In this document: one piece after another, positions 9,474-35,214 of the stretch
Position numbering within the stretch: the first letter of the stretch is position 1
Layout of the letters: each line of letters begins with the position of its first letter
NCBI GenBank assembly: GCA_000996895.1
Contig: LCBB01000005.1
Location: forward strand, 11,421 to 75,420
Reading direction: 5' to 3'
Origin: a candidate division WWE3 bacterium GW2011_GWC2_41_23
GTDB lineage: Bacteria; Patescibacteriota; WWE3; UBA101185; UBA10185
DNA: 64,000 nt
Made by a program: the position numbers and the translations under genes
Notes under the pieces: model-generated
What the model was told of the DNA's origin: nothing
The model's database searches: none
What the model saw: only the letters and a program-made list of their open reading frames with translations

Positions 9474-10454
9474 ATGTATAATAAAATAATGCAAGAGTCA
9501 ACTTACGATTTAATAATAATAGGTGGCGGACCTTCGGGGCTAACCGCAGCGATATATTCTTCACGTGCAATGTTAAAAACACTTGTTGTTGCGGGAAATC
9601 CTGCAGGCGGTCAACTTGTGATTACTTCCGATGTCGAAAATTTTCCGGGCTTCCCCGGAGGCATCATGGGGCCCGAACTCATTGAGAATATGCGAAAACA
9701 GGCAGAGAGATTCGGAACTTCCTTTAAGGACGCCAATGTTCACTCTATTCAAGGTACTGCCGAAGAGGGCTTTGAACTTAATCTTGATTCAGGTGAGAAA
9801 GTAAACGCCAAAACAATAGTTATAGCAACAGGCGCATCCGCAAGATGGATTGGGCTTGAAAGCGAGACCAGGTTAAGGGGAAAAGGTGTTTCTGCGTGCG
9901 CGACCTGCGACGGCTTTTTCTTTAAAGACAAAGTTGTTGCTGTTGTCGGTGCCGGAGACGCCGCGATGGAAGAAAGCACGTTCTTAACAAAGTTCGCTTC
10001 TAAAGTTTACATATTAGTAAGAAGAAGCGAAGATAAAGTAAAGGCCAGTAAGATAATGTTTCAGCGCGCCAAAGATAATCCCAAAATAGAATTTGTATTT
10101 AACACCGAAGTAAAAGAAGTTTTAGGAGAACACAGTGTGGAAGGTCTTAGTGTCATCAATAATGTAACCGGCGAGGAGAGAAAGATGGAAGATGTTAAGG
10201 GGCTTTTTGTTGCAATCGGGCACGAACCCAACACATCGTTTTTACAGGGATTTATCGACCTTGATGCAAAGGGATATATTGTCGTGAACTCTAATACTAA
10301 GACTTCCAAAGAGGGTGTTTTCGCTGCGGGAGATGTAGCCGATCACCACTACCGACAGGCAATAACCGCATCCGGAGTAGGTTGTATGGCCGCCCTTGAC
10401 GCCGTTAGATTCCTCGCTGACCGCGGTGTCTCGGTTAAATCAGATGCTTACTAA
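9474..10454 (+). CDS. trxB: thioredoxin-disulfide reductase
   Basis: FAD motif IIIGGGPSGLTAAIY, redox-active CATCDG, NADPH motif VVGAGDAAMEE. Confidence 0.9.
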   Translation: MYNKIMQESTYDLIIIGGGPSGLTAAIYSSRAMLKTLVVAGNPAGGQLVITSDVENFPGFPGGIMGPELIENMRKQAERFGTSFKDANVHSIQGTAEEGFELNLDSGEKVNAKTIVIATGASARWIGLESETRLRGKGVSACATCDGFFFKDKVVAVVGAGDAAMEESTFLTKFASKVYILVRRSEDKVKASKIMFQRAKDNPKIEFVFNTEVKEVLGEHSVEGLSVINNVTGEERKMEDVKGLFVAIGHEPNTSFLQGFIDLDAKGYIVVNSNTKTSKEGVFAAGDVADHHYRQAITASGVGCMAALDAVRFLADRGVSVKSDAY

Positions 10455-11880
10455 GTTGGGGGTTTTACTCAAAAAGCTCGGGTTTGAAAAGATTTTTCTT
10501 ATCATATTGTTACTTCTTAGTTTTTTGGTCCGCGTTTCGGGTTTAGGTTATTCCCATTATTACGGCGACGAAATAAAAACTCTTTATTTGGACAAGACGG
10601 TTACGGCATCTAAATTTTTACTGGACCAGCGAAAAGGTCCGGTTCAGTTTATCGCGACCTGGGTAATGGAAAAAATTTTCGGTGGTTACGACGAAGGTTG
10701 GTTACGATTGCCTTTTGCATTGGCATCGGTCATCTCCGTTTTTGTTTTATATTTTGTCGTCAAAAAGCTTTTCGGAAAAAATCCTGCATACTATGCGACG
10801 GTTATTTATGCTTTTTCGGGATTTAGTGTGGCGTTCGGGCGTACGGCTCAATATCAATCGTTCTTAATGTTGTTCGGATTTTTATCTCTCCTGTTTATTT
10901 TATTATCTAAAGAGACAAAAAGAAAAACTTATATTCTCGTGGCGGCTTTGTTTTGGGTTTTTTCAGTTTACAGTCACTACGACGGTGTATTTTTTCTGAT
11001 TCCTGCAGTTCTTTTTTTTATCCAAAATAAGAAGGATTTTTTGGATTTTCTAAAATATTTTTTATTTCCCGCAATGCTACTTTTATTGCCGTTTTATCTT
11101 CCGTATGTAATTAACGGCTATTTGGCTTCCAACACAATAAATTACGTGTCCAGGAGAATGTCGGGAAGCGGATATTTACCGAATAGTTCGGCTTATACAG
11201 TTAGTGTTTACAACCCATTTAATATTTTCTTGCTCTTGGTTTTGCCCGGTCTAATGTCATTTTTCACTAAGGGAAACCGTAAAGTTTACATGGTGCAAAT
11301 TTGGTTTGTAGCAACGCTGGGATTTTACGAGTTAGTAATTAAAAATCCCGGGACTCATATTCAAAATTACCTTCTGCCGTTAATAATATTGAGCGGATAT
11401 GTAATTTCTAGTTCCGGAAGATATATGCGGCTTGCGGTTTCCGTATTATTACCTTTTTACATCGGAATTTCTTTTTATACTTTTGTTCCGTCTTTAAATA
11501 CAGGTTACCCGTGGAAGCCGTCAAACATTTTAGGATTGCACTTGGGGAAGATAGAAAAAAAGTTTCAGCTATTTTTGTATGGTTTTCCCTACAACAGAGG
11601 CTGGGATCAGATTAAGGCGTATTTTGAAGAGAAAAAGGATGTTAACGGTGTTTACACAAACGACAACGATTCCTACGCCGACTATTACTTAAGAGGTTTC
11701 GCGTACACCCGTCCCGGACCTAATTTTTTACCACAATACTACGTTCACATCATAGATAGTCAGGAGATTGATAATCCGAAAGAAGATTTTCTCAGCACAA
11801 ATGCTGCTTTTTACAATCTCGAAGCAGAGTTTTTCGGTGACGCGGGGTCTGTATCCCAGATCTATAAACTTATAAAGTGA
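10444..11880 (+). CDS. GT-C-like polytopic membrane glycosyltransferase candidate (paralogue of 12538-14037)
   Basis: Start moved to the ATG at 10444 to avoid a 59-nt overlap with trxB. Shares LLDQRKGPVQF and YPWKPSNILG...GFPYNRGW blocks with the next gene. Confidence 0.55.
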   Translation: MLTKLGVLLKKLGFEKIFLIILLLLSFLVRVSGLGYSHYYGDEIKTLYLDKTVTASKFLLDQRKGPVQFIATWVMEKIFGGYDEGWLRLPFALASVISVFVLYFVVKKLFGKNPAYYATVIYAFSGFSVAFGRTAQYQSFLMLFGFLSLLFILLSKETKRKTYILVAALFWVFSVYSHYDGVFFLIPAVLFFIQNKKDFLDFLKYFLFPAMLLLLPFYLPYVINGYLASNTINYVSRRMSGSGYLPNSSAYTVSVYNPFNIFLLLVLPGLMSFFTKGNRKVYMVQIWFVATLGFYELVIKNPGTHIQNYLLPLIILSGYVISSSGRYMRLAVSVLLPFYIGISFYTFVPSLNTGYPWKPSNILGLHLGKIEKKFQLFLYGFPYNRGWDQIKAYFEEKKDVNGVYTNDNDSYADYYLRGFAYTRPGPNFLPQYYVHIIDSQEIDNPKEDFLSTNAAFYNLEAEFFGDAGSVSQIYKLIK

Positions 11881-12460
11881 TGTTAGCCCAGTCTACGATG
11901 TTCCACCAGTTTGTGATGTAATCAGCGCGTCTGTTCTGGTATTTAAGGTAATAGGCGTGTTCCCAGACGTCCAGCGCCAGGAGAGGTTTGTAACCTTCTG
12001 AGATGGGAGAAGCCTGATTTTGCGTATTCATGATTTTTACATTGCCTTCTTTGTCTTGTACCAGCCATGTCCAACCGCTACCGAAAAGCCCGAGAGCGCT
12101 TTTGGTAAATTCTTCCTTAAACATGTCGAACGAACCGAATGTACCGTTGATTTTTTCTAAAAGCATTCCGTCGGGTCCTGTGCTTTTAGCAGGTCCTATA
12201 ACACTCCAGAAAAAGTTATGATTAAACACTCCTCCGCCGTTGTTTATTACGGCCGTTCTAATGTTTTCGTCGATAGCCTCGGGTGACATTAAAATATCCT
12301 CCAACTCCATATTTTCCAGCGGTGTTCCGGTAATTGCCATTGTAAGTTTATCCAGGTAAGTTTTGTGATGTTTTGTATAGTGAACTTCCATTGTCTGGGT
12401 ATCAATATAGGGTTCTAAAGCGTCGAACGCGTAATTTAATTTCGGAAGCTCTTTTATCAT
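11870..12460 (-). CDS. Fe/Mn superoxide dismutase
   Basis: HYTKHHKTYLDKL and DVWEHAYYLKYQNRRADYI are canonical Fe/Mn-SOD metal-ligand regions. Confidence 0.9.
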   Translation of the reverse strand: MIKELPKLNYAFDALEPYIDTQTMEVHYTKHHKTYLDKLTMAITGTPLENMELEDILMSPEAIDENIRTAVINNGGGVFNHNFFWSVIGPAKSTGPDGMLLEKINGTFGSFDMFKEEFTKSALGLFGSGWTWLVQDKEGNVKIMNTQNQASPISEGYKPLLALDVWEHAYYLKYQNRRADYITNWWNIVDWANITL

Positions 12461-12537
12461 AAACCGTCCCTTTCAATATATTTACGGATATCTATATAAT
12501 ATCATAAGTTTACTTTTTTGCTAGAATTTAGGTGTAA

Positions 12538-14037
12538 ATGTTTGAGAAGAATATAGCTGTAATAATCAAATACGCAAATTTTATAATGCTGGGAACGATA
12601 TTTCTTTCGTTTGTTCTGTTACGTTTAATTAATCTTGGATACTCGGAGTACATACCTGATGAAACTACTGTAATGACGCCGGTAAAGAACTCTCAGATAG
12701 ATACGGGATTTTTACTCGCGCAAAGAAAAGGTCCGATGCAATTTTTAACTGTTCGGGTTGTAAACATATTCGGTATCAACGTGTTCGACGAATTTTCATA
12801 CCGCTTCCCTTTTTTCCTTGCCTCTGTTTTGGGGTTGTTCTTTTTTTATAAATTTATTAGAAACTTGGAAGGACAGTTTGTGGCTGTCGTAGCAACGTTA
12901 TTTTTGGGTTTGAACGGGCTTTTTATAGCTTTCGGGAGGGTCGTTCAGTACCAGAGCCTTAACTTACTTTTTTCATTTGCGGGTCTGTATTTTCTTTCTT
13001 TGTTGAAAGAAGAACAGCACAAGATAAGAAATTCTTTACTGGGATCTTTATTTTTGTGTCTCTCTTTTATGTCTCACTGGGATATGGTCTTCATTTTGCC
13101 CCCGGCGTTATTTTTAATTTTTAAGTACGTACTGTTCTCCGGCTTGAGGGGTAGACAAAAAAGATCTGTTGTCGGGGCATTACTATTGCCCGTGCTGGTA
13201 ATTTTTCTTCCCTTTTTTGTTAACTACTCAAGTGTTGCTTTGGCAGATGCAGGTAATATTAGTTATTTTAAAACCAGAGTCGGCTACACAGGCATATCCC
13301 TTGAAAGCATAATGTATGACCTTAAAGAGTACGTCGTAAAGGTGGAGTTATATAACCCGTTTGTTTATACGTATGTTTTGGGAGTTCTTGCTTTCGCAGG
13401 ATTAATAGGATCCAAACGGTCATACCCTTACTTTTATTGGTTTTTACTGTCGCTGGCGGTATTTATTTTTCTTGTTATAAAACCGGGCACCCATGTATAC
13501 AACATGTTTTATCCATCGGCAGTACTTGCCGCGCTGGGAGCGCACTATTTTTATCAGCTTTTTAAGGGGTTGCTATCCAAGGCTATCATTGTTGCTCTCG
13601 CAGTTCTTTTTTCGTTTTTTGCTTATCAGGGGTACCTCTTATTCGCGGATACAAAAGCGGATTATCCGTGGTCTCAGGAGGACATTTTAGGTCATAAAAC
13701 CAAGCCATACTCGCATCAAAGCCTTCCCAACAACATTATCGGTTTCCCGATTTACCGGGGTTGGAAGGAAGCGGCAGAATTTCTCGAAGGAGAAAACGCC
13801 AGAAACGGAGCTGATATTCCTTATATTACGAACGAAGAATCCAGCATAGGATGTTTTTACCTTCCATTAAGGTATGGAAAAGAATCGGAATATTACGCAA
13901 TAGGAGTAAAACGCCCGTTGTCTTTTGTAAATGATTACACGTTTCCATCGATAAAAAATAAGAAGACAATCAAGAGGATAGAAGTTTACGGCGAAAATAC
14001 GATGCGTATATATAAGGTGAATGTAAATGAAGAATAA
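12538..14037 (+). CDS. GT-C-like polytopic membrane glycosyltransferase candidate (paralogue of 10444-11880)
   Basis: LLAQRKGPMQFLTVRVV and YPWSQEDILGH...GFPIYRGW align with the preceding paralogue. About 12 TM helices. Confidence 0.55.
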   Translation: MFEKNIAVIIKYANFIMLGTIFLSFVLLRLINLGYSEYIPDETTVMTPVKNSQIDTGFLLAQRKGPMQFLTVRVVNIFGINVFDEFSYRFPFFLASVLGLFFFYKFIRNLEGQFVAVVATLFLGLNGLFIAFGRVVQYQSLNLLFSFAGLYFLSLLKEEQHKIRNSLLGSLFLCLSFMSHWDMVFILPPALFLIFKYVLFSGLRGRQKRSVVGALLLPVLVIFLPFFVNYSSVALADAGNISYFKTRVGYTGISLESIMYDLKEYVVKVELYNPFVYTYVLGVLAFAGLIGSKRSYPYFYWFLLSLAVFIFLVIKPGTHVYNMFYPSAVLAALGAHYFYQLFKGLLSKAIIVALAVLFSFFAYQGYLLFADTKADYPWSQEDILGHKTKPYSHQSLPNNIIGFPIYRGWKEAAEFLEGENARNGADIPYITNEESSIGCFYLPLRYGKESEYYAIGVKRPLSFVNDYTFPSIKNKKTIKRIEVYGENTMRIYKVNVNEE

Positions 14038-15112
14038 ATTTGTAAATATCACCAAAATAACGGTCATTGCGGCTATATTTTTAGTGGCTTGTATGTTGCG
14101 TCTTGATTTTTTCGGGGGCGCCGGAAAAGATATTTATGCTTACGAAAGATCTGTAGAAGATCTTTTGTCCGGGACTAACCCATATAAATGGACGGTTGCG
14201 ACCTACTCTACGCCGGATGACCCCGGCAATCACGGCTACGCATATCTTCCGCTTCTTCTATATCTAAACTCTTTTTTCTATATTATTTCCAAGTTAAGTG
14301 GTGTATCGTTTTATATTTTAAGTAAGATACCCATACTATTAGCGGATGTGGGTGTGGGCATACTACTGGTCAAGTTCTTGTACCGAAAAAATTATTGGGC
14401 TCTTTTAGGAGCTCTCTTGTTCTGGTTTTGGAATCCTTACTTTTTTATGAAAAATAATTATGTCTATACGGACCCATTGCCGGTATTTTTATCACTTTTA
14501 GCTTTTTATTATTTAGAGAAAGACGACGTTCTGGCAGGGGCATTTCTCGCTTTAGCAATAGCGGCCAAGCCATATTCGTTAATCTTTCTTCCACTTTTTT
14601 TATTCAAAGCCCAAAGACCTCTGAGATTGATGCTGTCTACCGTAATTGTAGGGGTATTTCTTAGTATACCTTTTCTCGGATCGTGGAACGATTTTATGAC
14701 TTACCTTAATGGAGCTGTGTTAGTACACGGAGATCGCATTGTTCAGGGGCGCCCTTTCCTGTGGTTTATAAGTTATTACGGAAAAATAGAGCTCATAAGG
14801 ATAATACCCGTAAAGTTTTACGCTTACGCTTCCATATTGTTGGGTTGGGTTTTTATAGTCATTGCCTTTTTGATTTTTAAGATTAAGGAAAAATATTTGC
14901 TGGGTGCAGGCTGTCTGGCGTTGTTTTATTTTTTCACACCCGTCTTAAACCGCACCTACCTGCTTTGGTTAATGCCCTTATTTGTAATTGCCTTGTATAA
15001 CATATTTAGTAAGAAGCAGGTTCTTTATTATTTTTCACTTTTATTCTATTGGGGTTTTTATTATGTGTATTTGTTTTACTGGAAGGATGGGTTTCACATT
15101 TGGCATCCTTAG
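14027..15112 (+). CDS. polytopic membrane protein, GT87/DUF2029-like mannosyltransferase candidate
   Basis: 361 aa, all hydrophobic helices. AFLALAIAAKPYSLIFLPLFLF-type segment. Overlaps the upstream gene by 11 nt, so probably co-transcribed. Confidence 0.45.
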   Translation: MKNKFVNITKITVIAAIFLVACMLRLDFFGGAGKDIYAYERSVEDLLSGTNPYKWTVATYSTPDDPGNHGYAYLPLLLYLNSFFYIISKLSGVSFYILSKIPILLADVGVGILLVKFLYRKNYWALLGALLFWFWNPYFFMKNNYVYTDPLPVFLSLLAFYYLEKDDVLAGAFLALAIAAKPYSLIFLPLFLFKAQRPLRLMLSTVIVGVFLSIPFLGSWNDFMTYLNGAVLVHGDRIVQGRPFLWFISYYGKIELIRIIPVKFYAYASILLGWVFIVIAFLIFKIKEKYLLGAGCLALFYFFTPVLNRTYLLWLMPLFVIALYNIFSKKQVLYYFSLLFYWGFYYVYLFYWKDGFHIWHP

Positions 15113-15222
15113 TTTTATATACAAATTTACATGCGTTTTTTGTTATTTTGATATTAAGTTTTCCGGCGGTATCTTTTAGGTTTCTAACTACCGATTACAA
15201 ACGGTGTGTTGGTAGGTAAAAA

Positions 15223-16797
15223 ATGTTTTTACCGGAGCAGTTAAAGATGAAATCAAAAAAAGAGTTGTTGAGTAAAATTGTAAACGGCAGATATTTCACG
15301 GGTATCGCTGTGTCGTTATTCCTTTTTCTACTACTTCTCCCCCTTTCCCTAAAAATAGATTTTATGCAAAACGACGATTGGGTCTACTACGGGATGGTCG
15401 AGAATTTTATGAAACTGGATTTCAGACTGGATCCCTTGTCCGCACCTACTTTTTATACCCAAGGCATACTCGGAACTTTATTCGCCGGTATTTTCGGATT
15501 ACAGAGTTTGCCAATTCTTACGCTAATTATTTCCGTACTGTGTTTCTTCGTTTTTTACATTATTTTGTTAAGACATTTTAATTTGGGGCGGTTTGAGTCA
15601 GTATTGGTGTCCTTGTTATTGTTTTTTAATCCGCTTTTTATCTACTCTGTGTGGGGATTTATGACGGAAAACTATTTTTTGTTGTTTATGCTTCTTTCAA
15701 TCTTGTTTTATTTGGAAAGTGTAAATGTTCCGAGCAGGAAGAACCTTTTTTTGTACGTTGTTTTTATCTTTTTGGCTCTTAATATAAGGCAGGTTGCCTT
15801 GGTTTTGCCTTTGTCCGGTTTCGTATACTCGTTGTTCAAAAGGAATGTAAGGCCGCTTTTGTTGAATTTGGGGGTTTTGGTGGGGCTGGGTGTCTACTAT
15901 GTTTTTATTTTTCCGTTAACCGCCGAAATGTCGGAAAAAAGCCTCCAATTTCACCACCTTCAAAGCTCGCCTTACGTGTATTCGTTGATTTACGGGTCTT
16001 TTATATTGGCAACTGCCCTACTCCTTCCTTTACTACTGCCGATTTTTAAAGAAAAGAAAAAACTTAAATGGGCGCTGTTTTTGGGTTTAGCGGTAGTCGC
16101 CTATATTTTATTGAACCGATATTTTCAACCGTCAAAAGTTTCGTGGGGAGAATTTCCCTATTTCGAAAACACGCTGGAACGAAAGGGCTTTTACCCGAGA
16201 GGGGTGCTGGGTACAAAATATTATTTTAAGTACATGTTCGATCTTTACCGTCACTGGGATTCGGCTGCAAAGATTGTTTTAAGTCTTTTTGTTGCCTATG
16301 CGGTACTAAAAATAAAGAAAATAAACGGACTCTGGGCAGTATTCACAATTATTTATATGGGGGTAATGACTGTCACCGAAACTTATTACGACAGGTACTT
16401 GTTAATTTTAATCCCGGTTTTAATCTTTATTATTCTGGGAGTAAACGGTTTTGGAAAAGTGAATAAATTTTTGTCGGTGTCTTTTTTAGCTTTTTTGATT
16501 TTTTACAATTACCAGTTTTCAATGGATTTCATTTTGGTTAACAAATACATCTGGAATAAATCCGAGGAGCTGGTTGTGAAGTACGATAAAGAACCCAGAA
16601 GAGTACAGGGTACGAATGCTTGGAAGCTGAAGTATTTAAATGAGAGAAGAAACTATGTGTTCGATTTTACCTACGATAGCTCGGAAATAAACAAGTCCTA
16701 CCGCGATTTGTACACTACCGAAGAGGGTAAAAAGATAGAATTTCCGGGAAGTTTGTGGGTCAAACCGTACATTTATTTGTATCAGAAGATAGACTAG
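15223..16797 (+). CDS. polytopic membrane protein (glycosyltransferase-like)
   Basis: 524 aa with many TM helices. Follows the same-strand series of membrane proteins. Confidence 0.45.
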   Translation: MFLPEQLKMKSKKELLSKIVNGRYFTGIAVSLFLFLLLLPLSLKIDFMQNDDWVYYGMVENFMKLDFRLDPLSAPTFYTQGILGTLFAGIFGLQSLPILTLIISVLCFFVFYIILLRHFNLGRFESVLVSLLLFFNPLFIYSVWGFMTENYFLLFMLLSILFYLESVNVPSRKNLFLYVVFIFLALNIRQVALVLPLSGFVYSLFKRNVRPLLLNLGVLVGLGVYYVFIFPLTAEMSEKSLQFHHLQSSPYVYSLIYGSFILATALLLPLLLPIFKEKKKLKWALFLGLAVVAYILLNRYFQPSKVSWGEFPYFENTLERKGFYPRGVLGTKYYFKYMFDLYRHWDSAAKIVLSLFVAYAVLKIKKINGLWAVFTIIYMGVMTVTETYYDRYLLILIPVLIFIILGVNGFGKVNKFLSVSFLAFLIFYNYQFSMDFILVNKYIWNKSEELVVKYDKEPRRVQGTNAWKLKYLNERRNYVFDFTYDSSEINKSYRDLYTTEEGKKIEFPGSLWVKPYIYLYQKID

Positions 16798-16890
16798 ATA
16801 GATTTATTGTTATATTTGCTGCGTTGGTGCCATGTTTGTTATTCTTAACTCATATATAAAGGCAGCGAAACACACCCTTTAAAGTATAAG

Positions 16891-18390
16891 ATGACAAAAA
16901 TGAGGAACAGACCCGGAGCCGTAATGTTGTTAATAATCTTGCTGTTCTTACTTCCCCGGGTGTTCTTATTAGGCACCGATATATCAAACTCAGACGCGTT
17001 GAGGTGGCACAGAAGATCGGATAATTTTCTTCAAGCACTTAAAAACCAAAACTTTGAAAAAACTTACCAAAGATACCACCCCGGTGTTACTGCGATGTGG
17101 GCGGGGGCAGTGTCCGAACAAATACTTAACGAATATCAAAAACTTAAAGGGGACGAAATTGCTACCTTAGAAAATGCCGAGTTTTACCCGGTACTGCACG
17201 CGTTATCAAAATTAGTTTTGATTGCAATATTAGCTTTTTGTTTTGCGTTGCAAATCTACCTAGTAAGCAAATTATTCGGAAGTAAAACTGCTCTGTTATT
17301 TGGAATTATAATTTCCACGGAGCCATATTTTATAGGTATAAACAGATGGTTTCATCTATCGTCTATGGAAGCAATGTTTTCGTTAAATGTCCTTTTACTT
17401 TTGATGTATTTTATTCAAACCAACAAGTTGCGTTTCATTGTATTATCGGGTTTTTTTGCGGGGTTGGGGTTATTAACTAAAATGACGGTATCTATTACCA
17501 TAGCTTTTTCTTTTTCCTACATCTTATACAGAGTTTTTAGAAATAAGACTAAATTTAACGCAGCGGTATTTTACGTAATTTCTATATGTGTCACTGTATT
17601 AGTTTTGTTTCCTGCCTTGTGGGTAAAACCGATGTTTGTTTTTTGGTCGATGTACTCGGCTATTGTAAACGCCGTTTTTGAGGACATAAGGGGGGAGTTG
17701 CTTACGCTTCCGCAAAAGCTTTTTTATTACCCGATAATTTTATTATTTAAAATGTCGCCCGTGGTGTTGATAATAGGTGTTTACTCCATCATAAACACTT
17801 TTAAAAGGGTAACTAGTAAAGAATTTGTCTTAGGTGTATATCTCGTTTTCTTAGTAACATTTCTAACCATCACAGATCAAAAAATAGACAGATACTCCAT
17901 CGCGTTATTTCCTTTTTGGATACTATTGGTAGCAAACACCCTTTCAAAATTAAAACCTCGTATTTTGACTGTTTTGTTATCTATCCATGTCGCAACATTT
18001 ATATGGGCAACCTCAGTGTACTACCCTGTTTATTCTGCATTTATAAATCCTTTGTTCGGGCATAAATTTGTGTTAAACGCAGGATTTTATGAAAATTCCG
18101 GAGAGTATTTTTCAGAAGCGGCGTTTTATCTAAACATAAAAGGACGCAATATACGTACCCACGTCCCTAATAACATAGAGTCTTTTAAACCTTATTACAA
18201 AGGCAAGTTAACGGGGTTACTAGATGATGCTGACTACGTGGTCTATAGTTTGGATTTTGACCGCAAATCCTTTCCCGCTATTAAAGATTGTAAAATAGAT
18301 AAATATTTTGGAAACCGTTTATATAAACCCGTTGCTGTTTATGCATGTAACAACGTGAGTTTAAAAACAAAAAGCTATTTAGTCAGGTAA
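16891..18390 (+). CDS. polytopic membrane protein (ArnT/PMT-like glycosyltransferase candidate)
   Basis: 499 aa with many TM helices. Confidence 0.45.
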   Translation: MTKMRNRPGAVMLLIILLFLLPRVFLLGTDISNSDALRWHRRSDNFLQALKNQNFEKTYQRYHPGVTAMWAGAVSEQILNEYQKLKGDEIATLENAEFYPVLHALSKLVLIAILAFCFALQIYLVSKLFGSKTALLFGIIISTEPYFIGINRWFHLSSMEAMFSLNVLLLLMYFIQTNKLRFIVLSGFFAGLGLLTKMTVSITIAFSFSYILYRVFRNKTKFNAAVFYVISICVTVLVLFPALWVKPMFVFWSMYSAIVNAVFEDIRGELLTLPQKLFYYPIILLFKMSPVVLIIGVYSIINTFKRVTSKEFVLGVYLVFLVTFLTITDQKIDRYSIALFPFWILLVANTLSKLKPRILTVLLSIHVATFIWATSVYYPVYSAFINPLFGHKFVLNAGFYENSGEYFSEAAFYLNIKGRNIRTHVPNNIESFKPYYKGKLTGLLDDADYVVYSLDFDRKSFPAIKDCKIDKYFGNRLYKPVAVYACNNVSLKTKSYLVR

Positions 18391-18435: not shown

Positions 18436-18966
18436 ATGCATATTAACCCCGCATTAAAAGGAACCCTGCTTACCACAATCTTAGCTGTTGTTTTTTCTGC
18501 ATCTCATGTTTTTTCTGCTTCCCTATCCTTGACTAAAATAGGCGCTTTAGATACAACAGGTAAAACTTATTCTGAATGGTGGTACTCACAGACAAGCGCT
18601 ACATTGGCAGGTACGGCTGCTGACGGAACTCAGGTGTCGGTAAAAGTTGGTGAGGCGGTAAACAACGTGAATGTCACATCAGGAACTTGGTCTTACGCGC
18701 TATCCGGTGAGAGTAAAGATTATCCGATTGAAATTTCCCAAGGTGCTGAAAAAATCTCGTTCACATTGCATCTAGGTCAGGTGCTTCCAAATACAGTAGT
18801 GGCAGGTTCTTCTCCTCAGACAGGCGGAGTGCCGGAAACAGGCTACAACCAAGTTATCGCAATAAGTCTGGGTGTGGGAATAGTACTTTTAGCTTCATAC
18901 TTTTACTTTTGGGGTGATTTAAAAAAGAAAACAGTTTTTGAAGCAAGAATGATCCGCGAAGATTAA
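18436..18966 (+). CDS. secreted surface protein with C-terminal sorting-signal-like anchor
   Basis: Signal peptide MHINPALKGTLLTTILAVVFSASHVFSA. C-terminus GGVPETG, then a hydrophobic helix, then KKK. Confidence 0.5.
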   Translation: MHINPALKGTLLTTILAVVFSASHVFSASLSLTKIGALDTTGKTYSEWWYSQTSATLAGTAADGTQVSVKVGEAVNNVNVTSGTWSYALSGESKDYPIEISQGAEKISFTLHLGQVLPNTVVAGSSPQTGGVPETGYNQVIAISLGVGIVLLASYFYFWGDLKKKTVFEARMIRED

Positions 18967-19595
18967 TCTTCCACAAAAGGCACGAACGCAAATCCGGGAA
19001 AAAATAAAGTGTCGAAATCCGTTTCTGTGTTTCTCACCATTTTGTAAATTCCACTGTCTTTAGGAAAAACCATAACTCCCCCGACCTTCAGTTGCTCTTT
19101 CCACGCTTCAGGTAATTCTCTGACTTCCGCAGCCGCGATTATTCTGTCAAATCCGCCGATTTCTTTAGAAACATTAGGCAGGCCTGTTTTTGCATTTCCC
19201 TCGTGAAGTGAAAGATTATCCGAAATCAAAGGATACTTGCCCACATTTTCTCCGGCATACTCGGAGAGTTTCGGAATAATCTCAACCGTGTAAACGTGGC
19301 CGTCTTCCCCCGACATAAAAGCTAATAAAGACGCCTGCCATCCCGAACCGGTACCGATATCAAGTATTTTATGCCCTTGCTTAATGTCCAGCAGTTCCAG
19401 CATGAACGCTACTGTGAATGGTTGGGAAATAGTCTGGCCGTAACCGATGGAAAGTGCGGCGTCGGTGTAGGAATTTCCCTTGTCTTCGGGTAGAACAAAA
19501 TCCGATCTGTCGATTTCCAGTAAAGCCTGTTCAACGGAAAAAGATTTCAGCACACCGGACGATTTAAGTTTATCTATAAGCTCGTGTTTGGTCAT
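18963..19595 (-). CDS. pcm: protein-L-isoaspartate O-methyltransferase
   Basis: LDIGTGSGWQASLLAFM and VYTVEIIPKL motifs. Start set at MTKHELIDKL (ATG 19593-19595), giving an ATGA overlap with the HIT gene. The longer ORF-track start would overlap HIT by 136 nt. Confidence 0.8.
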   Translation of the reverse strand: MTKHELIDKLKSSGVLKSFSVEQALLEIDRSDFVLPEDKGNSYTDAALSIGYGQTISQPFTVAFMLELLDIKQGHKILDIGTGSGWQASLLAFMSGEDGHVYTVEIIPKLSEYAGENVGKYPLISDNLSLHEGNAKTGLPNVSKEIGGFDRIIAAAEVRELPEAWKEQLKVGGVMVFPKDSGIYKMVRNTETDFDTLFFPGFAFVPFVED

Positions 19596-19960
19596 GACCT
19601 GATTTGTTCCGCTAAAATACTCAACTCTTCTTTTGAAGGTATGCGCGGGTTCGTGTAAAAAGGGTAAAGCTTTATATGAAGGTGGTCTATTTCTAAACCT
19701 TCGATACGGGTAAGTACTCTTTCGCACCCGAGCTTCTTTTTTAATAACTCCGCGGTATTTTTTGCAGTGTTTATCGCTGCATCTATTATTTCTTTGTCAT
19801 TGTTGTAAAAATCGCTATCATAGTGTTCTTTTGTTACTACAACCGTCATTCCTACTGTTGTCGGGTTTATATCTAAAAACGAAATATGGGCGTCGTCTTC
19901 GTAAATAATTTCGGAAGGTATCTCGCGTCTCGCTATCTTACAAAATATGCAGTCTTTCAT
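19592..19960 (-). CDS. HIT-family (histidine triad) nucleotide hydrolase
   Basis: MKDCIFCKIARREIPSE N-terminus and the HxHxHxx motif HLHIKLY. Confidence 0.85.
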   Translation of the reverse strand: MKDCIFCKIARREIPSEIIYEDDAHISFLDINPTTVGMTVVVTKEHYDSDFYNNDKEIIDAAINTAKNTAELLKKKLGCERVLTRIEGLEIDHLHIKLYPFYTNPRIPSKEELSILAEQIRS

Positions 19961-20658
19961 ACCGCTATTGTATCAATTTTACGAAAAATGAAGTAATCGT
20001 TAGAGGAGGAATTTTTACCGTCATCTTCAAAGCTGTCTATCAAAGCAAGTCCGTTTTTCTTCATTAAATCAACAACCGCACTTTTTTCCGTCTGACTGTA
20101 CAGGTGGCAATAGCGTTGAAGACCGGGGTCTTTATCCCACCCGAGTAAAAAATCACCATCTTCCCCAAGTTTTTTTACAGCTTTAGAAATATCGAAATCC
20201 CAGAACGTGATTATAAGGAAGCCCCCATCCGTTACAGTTTTAGCTGCCCCGGTAAAAAACTTTGATTGCAACTCTAAGCCCGGGATATGGTGTGTAACGC
20301 CAAAACTTACCACTAAATCAAATTGAGCCGCAGGGAGTTCTTTAAGCGCATCCATTTTCGTAAAATCGCCGTCAGTGTAATTATGTCGTGCTTCCGCCAA
20401 TAACCCGTCGTTTAAATCAACTCCTGTGTATTTTATTTCAGCCGAAGGGAGACGTTCTTTCAAAAATCCCAGAAATCTTCCGTTGCCACAGCCGGCATCT
20501 AGCACGGTAATGGTAGAATGACCGTTGAAGGATAAAACATCAACCGCCCTACCCCATCCTTTCCAGTAATTCTGGCGGGTTTTTGAGAATGGAACCGAAG
20601 CCTTTTTATAGAACGCTTCGTTAAGTTTTAAAATCTCGTCAATTTGGGCCTGATTCAT
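19957..20658 (-). CDS. class I SAM-dependent methyltransferase
   Basis: Motif I VLDAGCGNGRFLGFL. Confidence 0.75.
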   Translation of the reverse strand: MNQAQIDEILKLNEAFYKKASVPFSKTRQNYWKGWGRAVDVLSFNGHSTITVLDAGCGNGRFLGFLKERLPSAEIKYTGVDLNDGLLAEARHNYTDGDFTKMDALKELPAAQFDLVVSFGVTHHIPGLELQSKFFTGAAKTVTDGGFLIITFWDFDISKAVKKLGEDGDFLLGWDKDPGLQRYCHLYSQTEKSAVVDLMKKNGLALIDSFEDDGKNSSSNDYFIFRKIDTIAV

Positions 20659-20660
20659 AA

Positions 20661-22382
20661 ATGAAAAAACAAATTGTTGATAGTTCTAAGATAATACCAA
20701 TGATACGCGATATTTCCAACGCCGCGGACGAAAAAGAAGTGTTGAAGGTTTTGTTCAGGAATTCCAAGGGATTGGATGATACGTATTCTAAAGCGACGCT
20801 GTTGGAGGAATACCAGACTTTGAAACAAGCCGGAAAGCTGACTTTAACAGATAAGGACGAAAAGCGGTTTTTAGAAAACATCAAAACAAAAAAAATCAGA
20901 ACAATGTCCGGTGTTACCCCTATAACAGTTCTTACCAAGCCGTACCCATGTCCGGGCAAATGTATCTTTTGTCCGAGCGACATACGTATGCCCAAGAGTT
21001 ATTTATCGAGCGAACCCGGAGCACAACGCGCGCACGACAACAAATTTGATCCGTACTACCAAACCTACAACAGACTTGTTGCTTATGAGAAAACAGGACA
21101 CCCCGTGAGCAAAATAGAACTTATTGTTCTGGGCGGGACATGGACATCTTACCCTGAGGCATATCAGCTTTGGTTTATTAAAAGATGTTTTGATGCTTTA
21201 AACGATTTTAAACCCGAAACCAACTCGCCTTATTTGGTTGTAAAAACCCAGTTGCCGTATGACGAAAAAAAACTGGTAAACCTTACCGGCACGTATAATT
21301 CTATCGTCGGATTATCCAGAAACGACAAAATGTTGGCAGGAGAAGATTCTACTTGGGAAGAACTTTTTGCTTCTCATGCCAAAAACGTTAACGCTTTATG
21401 CAAGTGCACGGGATTGGTTATAGAAACACGCCCGGACGAAATAACCAAAGACGAGGTTGTGAGAATTAGACGCCTCGGTGCCACGAAAGTGCAGATAGGT
21501 ATTCAAAGCCTTAATGACAAGGTATTGAAGATAAACAAAAGAGGACACACTGTCGCAAAAACCGCCGAAGCTTTCACTTTATTAAGAGAGACGGGGTTCA
21601 AGATACATGCTCATTGGATGCCGAATCTATACGGTGCCACCCCCGCATCCGATATAAAAGATTTTTCAAAATTATTTGCAGATAAAAAGTTCAGACCGGA
21701 TGAGCTTAAAATCTATCCTTGTTCTTTAGTAGAAGGCACGGAACTTATGGGACTTCATAACTCAGGGGACTGGAAACCTTATACCGAAAAAGAGCTTTTA
21801 CATGTTTTTAAAAATATTCTTCCTACAGTCCCCCGCTACTGCCGCGTAACCCGTGTTGTGCGCGACATTTCAGGTTTGGACATCGTGGCCGGTAACAGAA
21901 AAACCAATTTTAGACAAATAGCCGAAGCAGAGCTGGAAAAAGACAAAACTAAACTTTCGGAAATAAGATCCAGAGAAATTAAGGACAAGAGAGTAAACAG
22001 GGAAGATTTGGTTTATAAAGAAACTACTTATCTTACAGCAGGCACGAAAGAATATTTTTTAGAGTTTGTGACAGACGAAGATAAAATCGCCGCTTTTCTT
22101 AGACTTTCTTTGCCGACAAGGCAGGCAAAAATTTCCGAAATAGAAGATTCAGCGGTGCTTCGGGAAATTCATGTCTATGGGGGAAGTGTTGTTGTAGGCA
22201 AGGGAGAAGTAGGCAGGGCCCAGCACGTTGGTTTGGGCAAAGAACTAATAAAGAAAGCCTCAGATATATCCCGCGCGGCGGGTTTTGAGAGGCTTTCAGT
22301 AATCTCCTCGGTAGGAACCAGGGGTTACTACTCCGGAATTGGTTTCACACAGGGCGCTTTGTACCAACACTTAAAACTTTAA
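20661..22382 (+). CDS. elp3: ELP3-like tRNA wobble-uridine modifying enzyme (radical SAM plus GNAT acetyltransferase)
   Basis: Radical SAM cysteine triad YPCPGKCIFCP. ELP3-type LIVLGGTWTSYPEAYQ block. C-terminal GNAT with EIHVYGGSVVVG...QHVGLGKELIKKA. Length 573 aa, typical for ELP3. Confidence 0.85.
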   Translation: MKKQIVDSSKIIPMIRDISNAADEKEVLKVLFRNSKGLDDTYSKATLLEEYQTLKQAGKLTLTDKDEKRFLENIKTKKIRTMSGVTPITVLTKPYPCPGKCIFCPSDIRMPKSYLSSEPGAQRAHDNKFDPYYQTYNRLVAYEKTGHPVSKIELIVLGGTWTSYPEAYQLWFIKRCFDALNDFKPETNSPYLVVKTQLPYDEKKLVNLTGTYNSIVGLSRNDKMLAGEDSTWEELFASHAKNVNALCKCTGLVIETRPDEITKDEVVRIRRLGATKVQIGIQSLNDKVLKINKRGHTVAKTAEAFTLLRETGFKIHAHWMPNLYGATPASDIKDFSKLFADKKFRPDELKIYPCSLVEGTELMGLHNSGDWKPYTEKELLHVFKNILPTVPRYCRVTRVVRDISGLDIVAGNRKTNFRQIAEAELEKDKTKLSEIRSREIKDKRVNREDLVYKETTYLTAGTKEYFLEFVTDEDKIAAFLRLSLPTRQAKISEIEDSAVLREIHVYGGSVVVGKGEVGRAQHVGLGKELIKKASDISRAAGFERLSVISSVGTRGYYSGIGFTQGALYQHLKL

Positions 22383-23832: not shown

Positions 23833-25173
23833 GTGAGTCCAAAACACATTTTAACCGATCCCTGTACTTTGGTTGTTTTTACCTACGCTCCAGCAGGGCT
23901 GGGGCACCTGCGTGTCACTAATTCCTTATCAGCAGGGCTCCCGAAAGGGGTAAAAACGGTATTACTGGGTTCTTCCGACAAAGGCATTGAGGCAATCCAC
24001 AAATTCATTAGCATACACGTTGTTACCCGTCGGCTGATGGAGTGGTTTCAACGTGGGCGTCCCCAAAAAATATTTACATTTTTCTACAGAAAGTATTTAA
24101 GATCCTACTCCGACGAAATGAAGAGGAAGATTGAAGAAATATTTGAGCAGCAAGTGGATATTCCGAAAAAAGTTGTAATTGTTGCGACTCATTTTGGGTT
24201 GGCTCATAAAATCGCAAAAGTAAAAAAAGAAATAGAAAAAAAGACAGGCGCAAAAATAATACTGGTAGTCCAGGTGACTGATGATACCCCGCAGTATATT
24301 TGGTACGTCCCCGGAGCCGACGTAATATTTGTGCCCAGCAGAAGAACAATGCTGGAATTAAAAGAGTACGCGTTAAAAAGCAATTTAGAAAAAGTGAAAA
24401 TTGAAGTGCTTCCCTACCCCGTGAATCCGCTGCTAAGTAAGAAATTGAGTAGCAAAGATTACGACAAACGTATAAGACAGGTGTCTGAGGGCACCGGCGA
24501 AGTAATAGATTTCTGCATGCCGGTCCCGGGAGCCGCGGTAGGAATGGATTTTTTGCACCACCTTATACCCCAGCTTCAGTCAAAGTATTCAAGATTTAGG
24601 TTCCACATCGTATGCAAAGAGGTACCATTTACACGCCGGTTTTTGGAGGAAGTGAGAACTTTTCCTAATGTACAACTTCATACTTCTAAACATGATCGGG
24701 AGATTGTGGATGTTTACGATAAAATTTACGAAGAAAACGTTATTTCGTTCGAGGTTACAAAACCCAGCGAACAGGCATTTAAAGCTCTTTACGATTTTGA
24801 CATGAGAGGAGGTTCCGTTCTCCTATTCTCTAATCCCGTCGGAAGGCAGGAAAGGGACAATCTGGATTTTCTAAGAAGGCACGGTTTAATTTTTGACCAA
24901 AAAATCACTCAGCGTTTGTGGAGTTACGCGGACGACGGAAAATCTATGAGCGGCGTAATGAAAAAAAGTTTGATGACGGAATGTAACGCACTCAGATGTT
25001 TCCAACTACCGTTTGGTTCCCAGCGTGCCGCCAATTTTATATGGTGGTGCCTGAAAAACAGAGTTTTCGAGTGCATGATAAGTAACTATTCTAACGCCGC
25101 CGCTAATAGTGATTTTGAAACCCGTTCCAACGGAGTCGAACAATTTTGGTCTAAAGTATCTTTGCTAGTATAA
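23833..25173 (+). CDS. hypothetical protein, possibly GT-B-like glycosyltransferase
   Basis: 446 aa. N-terminal YAPAGLGHLR resembles the Gly-rich N-terminal motif of MurG/MGDG-synthase-like enzymes. Weak. Confidence 0.35.
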   Translation: MSPKHILTDPCTLVVFTYAPAGLGHLRVTNSLSAGLPKGVKTVLLGSSDKGIEAIHKFISIHVVTRRLMEWFQRGRPQKIFTFFYRKYLRSYSDEMKRKIEEIFEQQVDIPKKVVIVATHFGLAHKIAKVKKEIEKKTGAKIILVVQVTDDTPQYIWYVPGADVIFVPSRRTMLELKEYALKSNLEKVKIEVLPYPVNPLLSKKLSSKDYDKRIRQVSEGTGEVIDFCMPVPGAAVGMDFLHHLIPQLQSKYSRFRFHIVCKEVPFTRRFLEEVRTFPNVQLHTSKHDREIVDVYDKIYEENVISFEVTKPSEQAFKALYDFDMRGGSVLLFSNPVGRQERDNLDFLRRHGLIFDQKITQRLWSYADDGKSMSGVMKKSLMTECNALRCFQLPFGSQRAANFIWWCLKNRVFECMISNYSNAAANSDFETRSNGVEQFWSKVSLLV

Positions 25174-33594: not shown

Positions 33595-35214
33595 TTAATA
33601 GTTAAATTGTCCGTATAATCTCTGTGATACACGTATTACGTGTATAGGTGTGTTTTCGCGCTTTATTTCATAGACTATTGGGAAAGTATTTTGGTAGGCA
33701 GCATCATCTGTTTGTTTCCTCAATTGTTCATTGAATGTATCACAGATTATCACGTCGGCATCGCGCGATCTTCCGACAAGTTCATACTGGAACTGAGAGT
33801 AATAAACTACAGAGAACTGATTATCGCAAGCGTAGACCTTGAGGTTGTTAATTCCCGTTCCTTGAACGTTTTTTAGCACTCTCTGTGCTGATTCTTTATA
33901 AGCAGCCCCCCAATAATCTAACTCAAAATTTTTGTTTGCTCCCCTAAGTCCTCCTATGAGTTCGTTGTAGTAAATGTACTCATAAGGATGCAGGAAAATC
34001 ATTCTTACTAACGTAAATAGTAAATATATCGATACGGAGCTTAGCAAAACAAATTTCTGTTTTGTTTTTGCTTTATTGTATAGATCAACCAGAAAAAACG
34101 AAGCAAGCAAAACCAGACAGACCGCGAGATACAGAAAATGTCTAATTCCGTTATAGACAACGGGGTGCAGAACTATGTATATAATAAAGTTGATAAGGAT
34201 GGTCACCGAGATGATAGAAACCGGGTGAGAAACGTTATAGCGAAGTTTTTTTCTAATTATTAAAAATAATCCTGAACCCAAAGATAGCAAAACCGATAGT
34301 GGTAGTTGTAATGACAATAATACGGGTAAGTAGTGCCATGGGCGTCTCTCTTTTGAAAGAAACTCACCCATGTAAAGAATTTTATGATTCCATGTTTGAA
34401 ATTCGGTCGATTCGGTAACTATATATATAAGATTGGCAAAAAAGTTTGTTCCTAAAAAAGGTACGCTTAACACCCAAATAAATAGTGAAATCATTAGGAT
34501 AAGTGTCGAGTTTAGCAGGGTTTTTGCCCAGCTTTCTTTACCGGTTACTAATCGAAAAATACTAAATAGAACATATACTACAAAAAGTGTTGCTCCTACA
34601 ATCCGCATGCTTTGGGCAATTCCGAAAACCACACCTAACGCGAGAATTTCCACAGATTTGTTTTTTGGGTATTTCATAAAATATGTAATAAGTAGGATTC
34701 CTAGAAGAAAAATTGTCGCGAAAGGTATATCTTTCGGATTTGCCGGTATGTGGCCGCTCACAGCTGGCGTGAGTAACAAAAGTGCGGGTCCGACAATTGC
34801 CCTCGAGCCGTCGTCATACACTAAATAAAGTATCGCGTAAGAAAAAAGAAATAAAAAAAGTCCCAAAATAAGGTTTTGAAGATGAAACCACTCGAAGTAA
34901 TAAGAGGGGTTTAAGATGTTTAATAAGGCGGGGTAAACTCTTGAGTAGGTGCTAAATAAGGGCAGTTGGTGAGAATATTTGATGTTGTCAGACTTATCGT
35001 TCACAAGCTTAGTTGTGTACTCTAAAGTTGTGGGAGTTACTAGATAGGCTGAAAGGTATTTCCCAGCATCGTACTCGACTTTTTCGTCGTATGTAACCCC
35101 GAAGTCTTTATAAAGTAGTAATGACGCTGCAAGGTAGATTGCCGAAAAAGCAACAATATAAACGTGCTTATTTATGAGCCGTTTTAGTGCGTGTACAAAT
35201 CTTTTGCTATTCAC
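33595..35214 (-). CDS. polytopic membrane protein (GT-C-like glycosyltransferase candidate)
   Basis: 539 aa with many TM helices. Similar architecture to the 0.9-18 kb membrane protein family. Confidence 0.45.
   Translation of the reverse strand: MNSKRFVHALKRLINKHVYIVAFSAIYLAASLLLYKDFGVTYDEKVEYDAGKYLSAYLVTPTTLEYTTKLVNDKSDNIKYSHQLPLFSTYSRVYPALLNILNPSYYFEWFHLQNLILGLFLFLFSYAILYLVYDDGSRAIVGPALLLLTPAVSGHIPANPKDIPFATIFLLGILLITYFMKYPKNKSVEILALGVVFGIAQSMRIVGATLFVVYVLFSIFRLVTGKESWAKTLLNSTLILMISLFIWVLSVPFLGTNFFANLIYIVTESTEFQTWNHKILYMGEFLSKERRPWHYLPVLLSLQLPLSVLLSLGSGLFLIIRKKLRYNVSHPVSIISVTILINFIIYIVLHPVVYNGIRHFLYLAVCLVLLASFFLVDLYNKAKTKQKFVLLSSVSIYLLFTLVRMIFLHPYEYIYYNELIGGLRGANKNFELDYWGAAYKESAQRVLKNVQGTGINNLKVYACDNQFSVVYYSQFQYELVGRSRDADVIICDTFNEQLRKQTDDAAYQNTFPIVYEIKRENTPIHVIRVSQRLYGQFNY

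Follow-up and report, generated by a model that had tools for sequence, protein, structure and literature searches.

Does a bacterium of the candidate phyla radiation (CPR) modify its wobble uridines in the manner known from eukaryotes and archaea? The question is raised by a gene for Elp3 in candidate division WWE3 bacterium GW2011_GWC2_41_23, located in the 64,000-nucleotide stretch of contig LCBB01000005.1 that was analysed here (the window). The gene stands back to back with a gene for a class I methyltransferase. Wobble modification of the 5-methoxycarbonylmethyluridine (mcm5U) type is textbook eukaryotic and archaeal biology, and bacteria are taught to use MnmE/MnmG. The two genes of the window probably constitute a divergent two-gene module for the modification of the tRNA wobble uridine in this WWE3 bacterium. 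It is likely that the two proteins serve one pathway acting on uridine 34 (U34), and mcm5U is the product that is mildly favoured. The window Elp3 itself is an ordinary member of its family, already named Elp3 in databases; the new part is the prediction of mcm5U34 for bacteria. Membership in a known family follows from the fact that stand-alone prokaryotic Elp3 is known and that the NCBI pipeline already names close relatives Elp3.

Identity and architecture of the Elp3 protein

The open reading frame (ORF) at 20661-22382 (+) starts with ATG and encodes 573 amino acids (aa), followed by a stop. The annotated start is supported by full-length homologues of 573 aa (86-88% identity) and by an invariant M1 column in an alignment of 38 sequences. 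It is virtually certain that the ORF encodes a genuine Elp3. A first-pass annotation of the window, made from the letters alone, had called it an ELP3 homologue and proposed a check with ELP3 profiles. The check supports the assignment: NCBIfam TIGR01211 (Elp3), whose curated cutoff is 350 bits, matches aa 59-568 with 450.7 bits and is covered at model positions 39-517 of 522. Of the strings that the annotation had pointed out, YPCPGKCIFCP lies at aa 95-105 and LIVLGGTWTS is likewise present; aa 152-163 read IELIVLGGTWTS, and a C-terminal acetyl-CoA-type motif, QHVGLG, lies at aa 521-526. The architecture of a radical SAM (S-adenosylmethionine) domain plus a GNAT domain, also proposed there, is borne out by Pfam, by searches of PDB and by structure prediction, which all agree. 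Pfam detects Radical_SAM, Radical_SAM_C and, below threshold, GNAT (19.4 vs 20.7 bits), and Acetyltransf_1 matches aa 458-562 (E 0.0013). The best phmmer match in PDB is Elp3 of Dehalococcoides mccartyi (DmcElp3, 5l7j, 2e-90), followed by that of Methanocaldococcus infernus (MinElp3, 6iad, 3e-89); human ELP3 (8ptx) is found at 6e-76, and the human, mouse and yeast proteins range from 6e-76 to 4e-72.

The AlphaFold2 (AF2) model, built with 38 homologues, has a mean predicted local distance difference test (pLDDT) score of 84.8 and a predicted template modelling (TM) score, pTM, of 0.81. In this predicted structure the radical SAM domain is packed with the lysine acetyltransferase (KAT) domain in the two-domain Elp3 fold. 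The top 11 Foldseek matches in PDB are all Elp3, with target-normalised TM scores of 0.79-0.91, and the first non-Elp3 matches, HydG and HemN, reach about 0.3. A best match to a HemN-like enzyme and a C-terminal domain lacking the GNAT fold, the outcome that the first-pass annotation had named as contrary to its reading, was thus not what was found.

The probability is negligible that the ORF encodes another kind of radical SAM enzyme, similar to HemN/HemW/HemZ or to MnmL/YtqA and bearing an unrelated domain at its C-terminus. Such an identity draws on weak partial matches at aa ~230-415 only: the second-best NCBIfam model, TIGR01212 (MnmL/YtqA), gives 53.6 bits, and the HemN/HemW/HemZ-type models, with cutoffs above 200, give 15-46 bits (HemZ 46.1). 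The curated cutoffs of these models, 180-1100 bits, are left far above the scores, whereas the Elp3 model stands 100 bits over its own cutoff, and HemN (1olt) reaches a TM score of 0.28-0.36 against the range given above for Elp3 structures. Both identities were rejected on these scores, and the HemN-like one is excluded by the Elp3-only fold matches.

An identical Elp3 protein occurs on many public contigs (83 blocks of a public collection), including NCBI assembly GCA_001773275.1. The nearest named relatives are 86% identical and come from candidate division WWE3 bacteria (Patescibacteria/CPR lineage). Where the source is named, the top homologues belong to Patescibacteria, Chloroflexota or Bacteroidota. 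The homologue search returned at least 8000 candidates for the long form and at least 8000 for the form of the Dehalococcoides type. The first-pass annotation's description of Elp3 as sporadic in bacteria does not hold: the protein is not rare there. The parts of the protein are listed below.

20661-22382, + strand: Elp3 coding sequence, radical SAM domain followed by KAT/GNAT domain (TIGR01211, PDB phmmer, AF2/Foldseek)
20661-20888, + strand: N-terminal extension, aa 1-76; the DmcElp3 alignment begins at query aa 77, equal to chain residue 3
20949-20972, + strand: radical SAM [4Fe-4S] motif C97-x3-C101-x2-C104, aligned with DmcElp3 C23/C27/C30
21207-21377, + strand: insertion of 57 aa (aa 183-239) inside the radical SAM domain, absent from all solved Elp3 structures and clade-specific
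21954-21971, + strand: linker site of the zinc-binding Cys triad, where L432/E434/S437 align with DmcElp3 C310/C312/C315
21978-22379, + strand: KAT (GNAT) domain with the acetyl-CoA pocket E502, H504, QHVGLG 521-526, K527 and Y556 (DmcElp3 alignment, Pfam)

The Fe-S cysteines C97/C101/C104 are invariant in the alignment of 38 homologues and in every complete Elp3 compared. E386, H388, R411 and Y441 of DmcElp3 align with E502, H504, K527 and Y556 of the window protein, and the pocket lysines K77 and K193 with K151 and K314, both in the radical SAM domain. K77, K193, E386 and Y441 of DmcElp3 are conserved and needed for function, as reported by Lin et al. (PMC6367351). K151, K314, E502, H504 and Y556 are invariant in the 38-homologue alignment; position 527 is not among the invariant positions listed. 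The counterpart of the 'acetyl-CoA blocking loop' is the flexible loop 506-522, with pLDDT below 50 at 509-518.

The N-terminal extension is predicted to form four helices (8-19, 24-33, 44-56, 64-74; block pLDDT 68-89) and contains 15 K+R and 13 D+E. Such an extension occurs in archaea and eukaryotes and helps tRNA binding (PMC6367351). The insertion becomes visible when phmmer splits DmcElp3 into two blocks on the window protein, 77-182 and 240-568, with only 8 DmcElp3 residues between them. Residues conserved within it include F183, P199, Y212, N213, E228, W232 and L235, and AF2 places short helices in the region 181-240 (block pLDDT 74-97). The zinc Cys triad is not present in the window Elp3.

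The adjacent methyltransferase and its pairing with Elp3

The gene next to Elp3 is transcribed away from it:

19957-20658, - strand: Trm9-like class I SAM-dependent methyltransferase, 233 aa, predicted carboxyl methyltransferase converting 5-carboxymethyluridine (cm5U) at position 34 to mcm5U34
20605-20719: region of the back-to-back starts, with the methyltransferase ATG at 20658-20656 (-), the Elp3 ATG at 20661 (+) and a gap of 2 nucleotides

Pfam assigns this protein to Methyltransf_11/25/23, that is, to generic class I methyltransferases. A family profile made from an alignment of 35 homologues finds Trm9 of Yarrowia lipolytica (YlTrm9, 5cm2_Z) as top match in PDB, with E 2.5e-20 and 76 bits, the alignment spanning almost the full chain; a generic methyltransferase comes second, 8 logs behind at E 4.4e-12. 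The AF2 model (pLDDT 92.5) also has 5cm2_Z as its top Foldseek match in PDB (E 2.7e-13), with a small margin over other class I methyltransferases. The identity to YlTrm9 is 22%. Clustered at 50% identity, the family comprises 2241 representatives with E <= 1e-30; a few members are labelled TRM9 by the Joint Genome Institute.

The first-pass annotation had suggested that one of two methyltransferases, at 19957 or at 4199, could act in analogy to Trm9. For 19957-20658 the suggestion gains support from the profile, the fold, the active-site residues and the synteny; for 4199-4948 (+) it fails. The latter protein scores 41.7 bits on the family profile, through its generic SAM-binding core only, and has none of the FSxTR, HH, W and RY.H motifs; it was rejected as a Trm9 analogue.

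Eight residues of yeast Trm9 were found essential by mutagenesis (R29, D72, H116, W145, W168, R241, Y243 and N271), as reported by Létoquart et al. (PMC4678810), and Y18 and H115 were placed in the cm5U pocket (PMC4678810). Conservation was scored in 86 family members, namely the window and 85 related loci. Seven of the eight essential residues are conserved, N271 by a less certain alignment. R29, D72, H116, W145, W168 and R241 correspond to R28, D81, H124, W153, W174 and R182 of the window protein. The counts per position, by yeast numbering, are as follows.

Y18 equivalent: 84 of 86 members
R29 equivalent: 84 of 86
D72 equivalent: 85 of 86
H115 equivalent: 84 of 86
H116 equivalent: 86 of 86
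W145 equivalent: 86 of 86
W168 equivalent: 77 of 86, Phe in the other 9
R241 equivalent: 85 of 86
Y243 equivalent: Tyr in 4 of 86, Cys in 59 and Val in 16 (Cys or Val in 75 of 86)
N271 equivalent: 78 of 86, mapped by motif position only

N271 has been proposed to read the uracil ring (PMC4678810). In the window protein a near-invariant Asn, N220, occupies the matching place ahead of the last strand; phmmer pairs D213 with chain position 186. The Y243A mutant of yeast Trm9 retains ~10% activity (PMC4678810).

The pairing was examined by scanning contigs of one genome per species with the methyltransferase profile, which gave 80 loci. These come from Patescibacteria (WWE3, Dojkabacteria, Saccharibacteria, Paceibacterota, Woesebacteria) as well as from Chloroflexota (Anaerolineae, Caldilineaceae, Aggregatilineales), Acidobacteriota and Myxococcota; certain taxon labels of metagenome-assembled genomes in the set, e.g. 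'Pseudomonadales', may be wrong. With the window Elp3 as tblastn query, 59 of the 80 loci proved to have Elp3 no more than 6 kb away; 58 of these 59 share the layout of the window, with Elp3 upstream of the methyltransferase and on the other strand. Upstream sequence of 2.5 kb or more is available for 67 loci, and Elp3 is present in 53 of them. The two genes are directly adjacent in 45 of 58 loci, judged by distance as a proxy. Clustering of the ORFs of the 80 neighbourhoods left the methyltransferase and Elp3 as the sole conserved families, the other recurrent clusters being antisense shadow ORFs; a third conserved gene (Trm112, Kti12-like or thiolation enzyme) was not found within 6 kb of the pair.

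The reverse sample gave the same picture. Four Patescibacteria Elp3 proteins, picked solely for their long contigs, all have a divergent upstream methyltransferase of the family (221-244 bits on the profile), adjacent in three cases and with one intervening gene in the fourth. The Elp3 gene of D. mccartyi (CP019867.1) has a divergent class I methyltransferase of 224 aa located 44 nucleotides upstream, at 5283-5957 (-) of the extracted locus; its family-profile score is 63 bits, and it has the HH, W, W and RYY motifs. For bacteria, a conserved module of Elp3 and a Trm9-like protein is well supported and apparently unreported. In the literature searched, no description was found of a bacterial Elp3-Trm9 pair or of CPR wobble modification, nor was the D. 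mccartyi methyltransferase seen to be mentioned; Glatt et al. (2016) may mention this neighbour.

The Elp3 proteins themselves were compared in a set of 121 sequences, of which 59 complete ones from methyltransferase-bearing loci, the window included, were classified. Two of the 59 are intermediate between the following types.

Type A, 34 of 59: N-extension, insertion of 54-140 aa, no Cys triad; the window, most Patescibacteria, Acidobacteriota, Myxococcota and some Chloroflexota
Type B (archaeal-like), 22 of 59: N-extension, no insertion, Cys triad; Caldilineaceae, Anaerolineales and Saccharibacteria
Type C (Dehalococcoides type), 1 of 59: no extension, Cys triad; D. mccartyi

The presence of the insertion coincides with the absence of the triad in every sampled protein: the type without the insertion always has CCC, and the insertion-bearing one always has residues other than Cys. 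The Fe-S cysteines are kept in all types, and the K-K-E-H-Y pocket in all sequences but one. The core identity between the insertion-bearing type and the DmcElp3 type is ~40% on average. The zinc Cys triad marks a sub-type of Elp3 and not the family, and the distribution suggests that the insertion makes up, in structural terms, for the loss of the zinc site. The zinc-less, insertion-bearing subtype is well supported and apparently unreported.

In the proposed pathway, Elp3 would bind a tRNA with U34 and its KAT domain would hydrolyse acetyl-CoA, as expected from family membership. The [4Fe-4S] cluster on C97/C101/C104 would reductively cleave SAM to a 5'-deoxyadenosyl radical. The acetyl or acetate unit would move to the radical SAM site, where the radical would activate the acetyl methyl group, and addition at C5 of U34 would yield cm5U34. 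This step would proceed without the other Elongator subunits; prokaryotic Elp3 acts alone according to the literature (PMC7663514). The Trm9-like methyltransferase, using SAM, would then methyl-esterify the carboxyl group to give mcm5U34, a step suggested by similarity and synteny. An Arg/His pair would position the carboxylate for methyl transfer from SAM, as in the Trm9 model (PMC4678810).

Several points weigh against the last step and its product. The 2020 Elongator review finds xcm5U34 in bacteria to be without direct evidence (PMC7663514). Eukaryotic and archaeal Trm9 depend on Trm112; a search of the 80 loci, confined to the neighbourhoods within 6 kb of the pair, showed no conserved gene of the Trm112 type. 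The essential Y243 of yeast is replaced by C184 in the window methyltransferase (RYCH vs RYYH in YlTrm9); this Cys-for-Tyr exchange, together with the low identity to Trm9 given above, leaves room for a different substrate. The equation of N220 with N271 comes from motif position and not from a printed alignment. A single-sequence PDB search with the D. mccartyi methyltransferase ranks Trm9 7th (E 1.8e-10). One alternative is that Elp3 makes cm5U34, or a derivative of the 5-carbamoylmethyluridine (ncm5U) or another type, while the methyltransferase acts elsewhere and mcm5U is not the end product; its substrate could be a carboxylated nucleoside (cf. CmoM on uridine 5-oxyacetic acid, cmo5U), a small molecule or a protein. 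We consider this rather unlikely. The sequence space of class I methyltransferases is promiscuous, the family profile matches many generic ones at E 1e-12 to 1e-8, and their Foldseek E values lie within 1-2 logs of that of Trm9, which, with the unconserved Y243 position and a Trm112 gene missing near the pair, would suit such a substrate. Set against this, the pairing with Elp3 persists in four or more phyla and with three Elp3 architectures, a pattern that would be difficult to account for if the two proteins did not share a pathway, and the equivalents of the residues that contact the cm5U carboxylate and uracil in the Trm9 model (R29, H115/H116, W145, R241 and, as mapped by motif position, N271) are near-invariant.

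Another alternative revives the historical 'histone acetyltransferase' reading, in which the window Elp3 would be mainly a protein lysine acetyltransferase. The GNAT-type C-terminal domain agrees with it, and PDB depositors still call archaeal Elp3 'Histone acetyltransferase, ELP3 family'. The radical SAM half, however, is fully conserved, Fe-S cysteines included, and the conserved partner gene resembles a tRNA methyltransferase, so that this function is most improbable. A joint pathway of Elp3 and the methyltransferase leading to mcm5U34 is the reading preferred here. We infer the enzyme activities, the tRNA substrates and the final nucleoside from sequence and fold membership, from the catalytic residues and from the conservation of the pair.

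Gene neighbourhood in the window

The methyltransferases at 19957-20658 (-) and 4199-4948 (+), HIT and pcm, which the first-pass annotation had named as neighbours of Elp3, are all present. Features close to the pair are:

20605-20634, + strand: promoter-like site TTTATA-18-TAAAAT (consensus match only)
20719-20691, - strand: promoter-like site TTGGAA-17-TATTAT with TG upstream (consensus match only)
19592-19960, - strand: HIT, adjoining the methyltransferase
18963-19727, - strand: pcm; translation probably begins at the ATG at 19595, for a length of 210 aa in agreement with gene callers

The promoter-like hexamers of each gene sit within the first 60 nucleotides of the other gene, a layout that is compatible with coupled divergent transcription. 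An ORF of 118 aa at 20639-20995 (-) is wholly antisense to the 5' end of Elp3; it is probably no gene, since its counterparts in related loci merely shadow conserved coding sequence.

Stop and start codons overlap by 4 nucleotides between the methyltransferase and HIT (19957-19960) and, if pcm has 210 aa, between HIT and pcm (near 19592-19595). Methyltransferase, HIT and pcm (18963-20658, -) therefore probably form one operon. Of the 85 related loci, 4 have a HIT gene of the window type and 3 have pcm, and these belong to the closest relatives only; Pfam-level HIT genes are present elsewhere in two Patescibacteria loci, at other positions. The 'protein-repair neighbourhood' of the first-pass annotation therefore finds no wider signal. 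A functional tie of the Elp3/methyltransferase pair to HIT and pcm was rejected on these counts, and the two genes are treated as lineage-local.

A tRNA cluster is located at 7371-8705 (-), 12 kb from the Elp3 module, and comprises Leu(UAA), Arg(UCU) and Gly(UCC). Each of the three has U34 and is of a class in which xm5U-type modification occurs elsewhere, which makes them natural test substrates for the module. Beside the generic class I methyltransferase 4199-4948 (+) lies a pseudouridine synthase of the RluA type that includes an S4 domain (3383-4078, -); the two are possibly another RNA-modification pair, unrelated to Trm9. Two oxidative-stress genes, for a thioredoxin-reductase-like flavoprotein (9474-10454, +) and an Fe/Mn superoxide dismutase (11870-12460, -), share the CPR genome with the oxygen-sensitive radical SAM enzyme.

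A run of large membrane proteins extends over 10396-18390 (+). It includes PMT_2/GT39-like glycosyltransferase paralogues (10396-11880 and 12538-14037, with a weak match at 16891-18390), a GT87-like protein (14027-15112, +) and a membrane protein of 524 aa with no Pfam match (15223-16797, +). Five large ORFs (337-666 aa) also have no Pfam match at E <= 0.001, or at E <= 0.01 for the fourth of them: 924-2306, 2315-3328, 4980-6980, 23833-25173 and 33595-35214.

Comparison with known systems

Bacterial mcm5U34 is a testable prediction, and the question of whether bacteria make mcm5U becomes a two-gene expression experiment. By a slight preference, we hold that several phyla carry a self-sufficient mcm5U34 module, which may be Trm112-free and may replace MnmE/MnmG, and that the window Elp3 represents an uncharacterised insertion-bearing, zinc-less subtype. 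The phyla in question would be Patescibacteria/CPR including WWE3, Chloroflexota including Dehalococcoides, Acidobacteriota and Myxococcota. If this is true, three views would be overturned: the confinement of bacterial Elp3 to Dehalococcoides, to which the 2020 Elongator review restricts it (PMC7663514); the absence from bacteria of homologues of Trm112-partner methyltransferases, no similar bacterial genes having been detectable according to the 2017 Trm112 review (PMC5372719); and the strict conservation of the zinc Cys triad in prokaryotic Elp3. A 2026 paper reports stand-alone Elp3 in 'numerous bacteria'. The methyltransferase family, now annotated as 'hypothetical' or 'class I SAM-dependent methyltransferase', could receive a specific name. 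The bacterial forms also offer monomeric full-length Elp3 variants, with N-extension and without zinc site, for mechanistic work, and the pair bears on split-codon-box decoding in ultra-small CPR genomes.

DmcElp3 (PDB 5L7J, 5L7L, 6IA6) is the only structurally characterised bacterial Elp3. It resembles the window protein as a stand-alone radical SAM plus KAT enzyme with the same Fe-S cysteines and acetyl-CoA pocket residues, and with a divergent methyltransferase of the same family. It differs in having 459 aa, no N-extension, 8-10 residues in place of the 57-aa insertion and a zinc site (C310/C312/C315). The archaeal Elp3 of M. infernus (6IA8, 6IAD, 6IAZ) has been shown to synthesise cm5U in vitro, which is the reaction proposed here. 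Like the window Elp3 it is monomeric, stand-alone and extended at the N-terminus by ~75 aa; unlike it, it keeps the linker Cys triad and has no insertion at 183-239.

Eukaryotic Elp3 within Elongator (yeast 6QK7/8ASV, human 8PTX, mouse 8AVG) gives the best Foldseek E values, 1.5e-38 to 2e-38. It shares with the window Elp3 the two-domain fold, the N-extension and the lack of the zinc Cys triad (for the triad, PMC6367351). By sequence the window protein scores 247-260 bits to eukaryotic Elp3 vs 303-307 bits to DmcElp3 and MinElp3. Eukaryotic Elp3 acts only within Elp1-6, whereas the bacterial pair is accompanied by no other conserved gene in the neighbourhoods analysed.

For the methyltransferase the comparators are the Trm9-Trm112 systems of Y. 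lipolytica (5CM2), Saccharomyces cerevisiae Trm9, human ALKBH8 and Haloferax volcanii Trm9. The bacterial family shares with Trm9 the FSxTR Arg, the HH pair, both Trp, the R of RY(Y/C)H and, judged by motif position, the C-terminal Asn. It departs from Trm9 in having mostly Cys or Val at yeast Y243, no linked Trm112 gene and 22% identity to YlTrm9. In archaea, Trm9 orthologues are limited to Sulfolobales and Halobacteriales according to the 2017 review (PMC5372719). mcm5U made by Trm9-Trm112 has been proven in H. volcanii (PMC6144793), and the sole recorded case of clustered Elp3 and Trm9 genes is Sulfolobus (PMC6144793).

The canonical bacterial route to xm5U34, the MnmE/MnmG pathway, modifies the same atom, C5 of U34, in the same tRNA classes and is a functional analogue of the Elp3 system (PMC7663514). 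The proteins and the chemistry are unrelated to those of Elp3: a GTPase together with FAD and folate yields 5-carboxymethylaminomethyluridine (cmnm5U) or 5-aminomethyluridine (nm5U).

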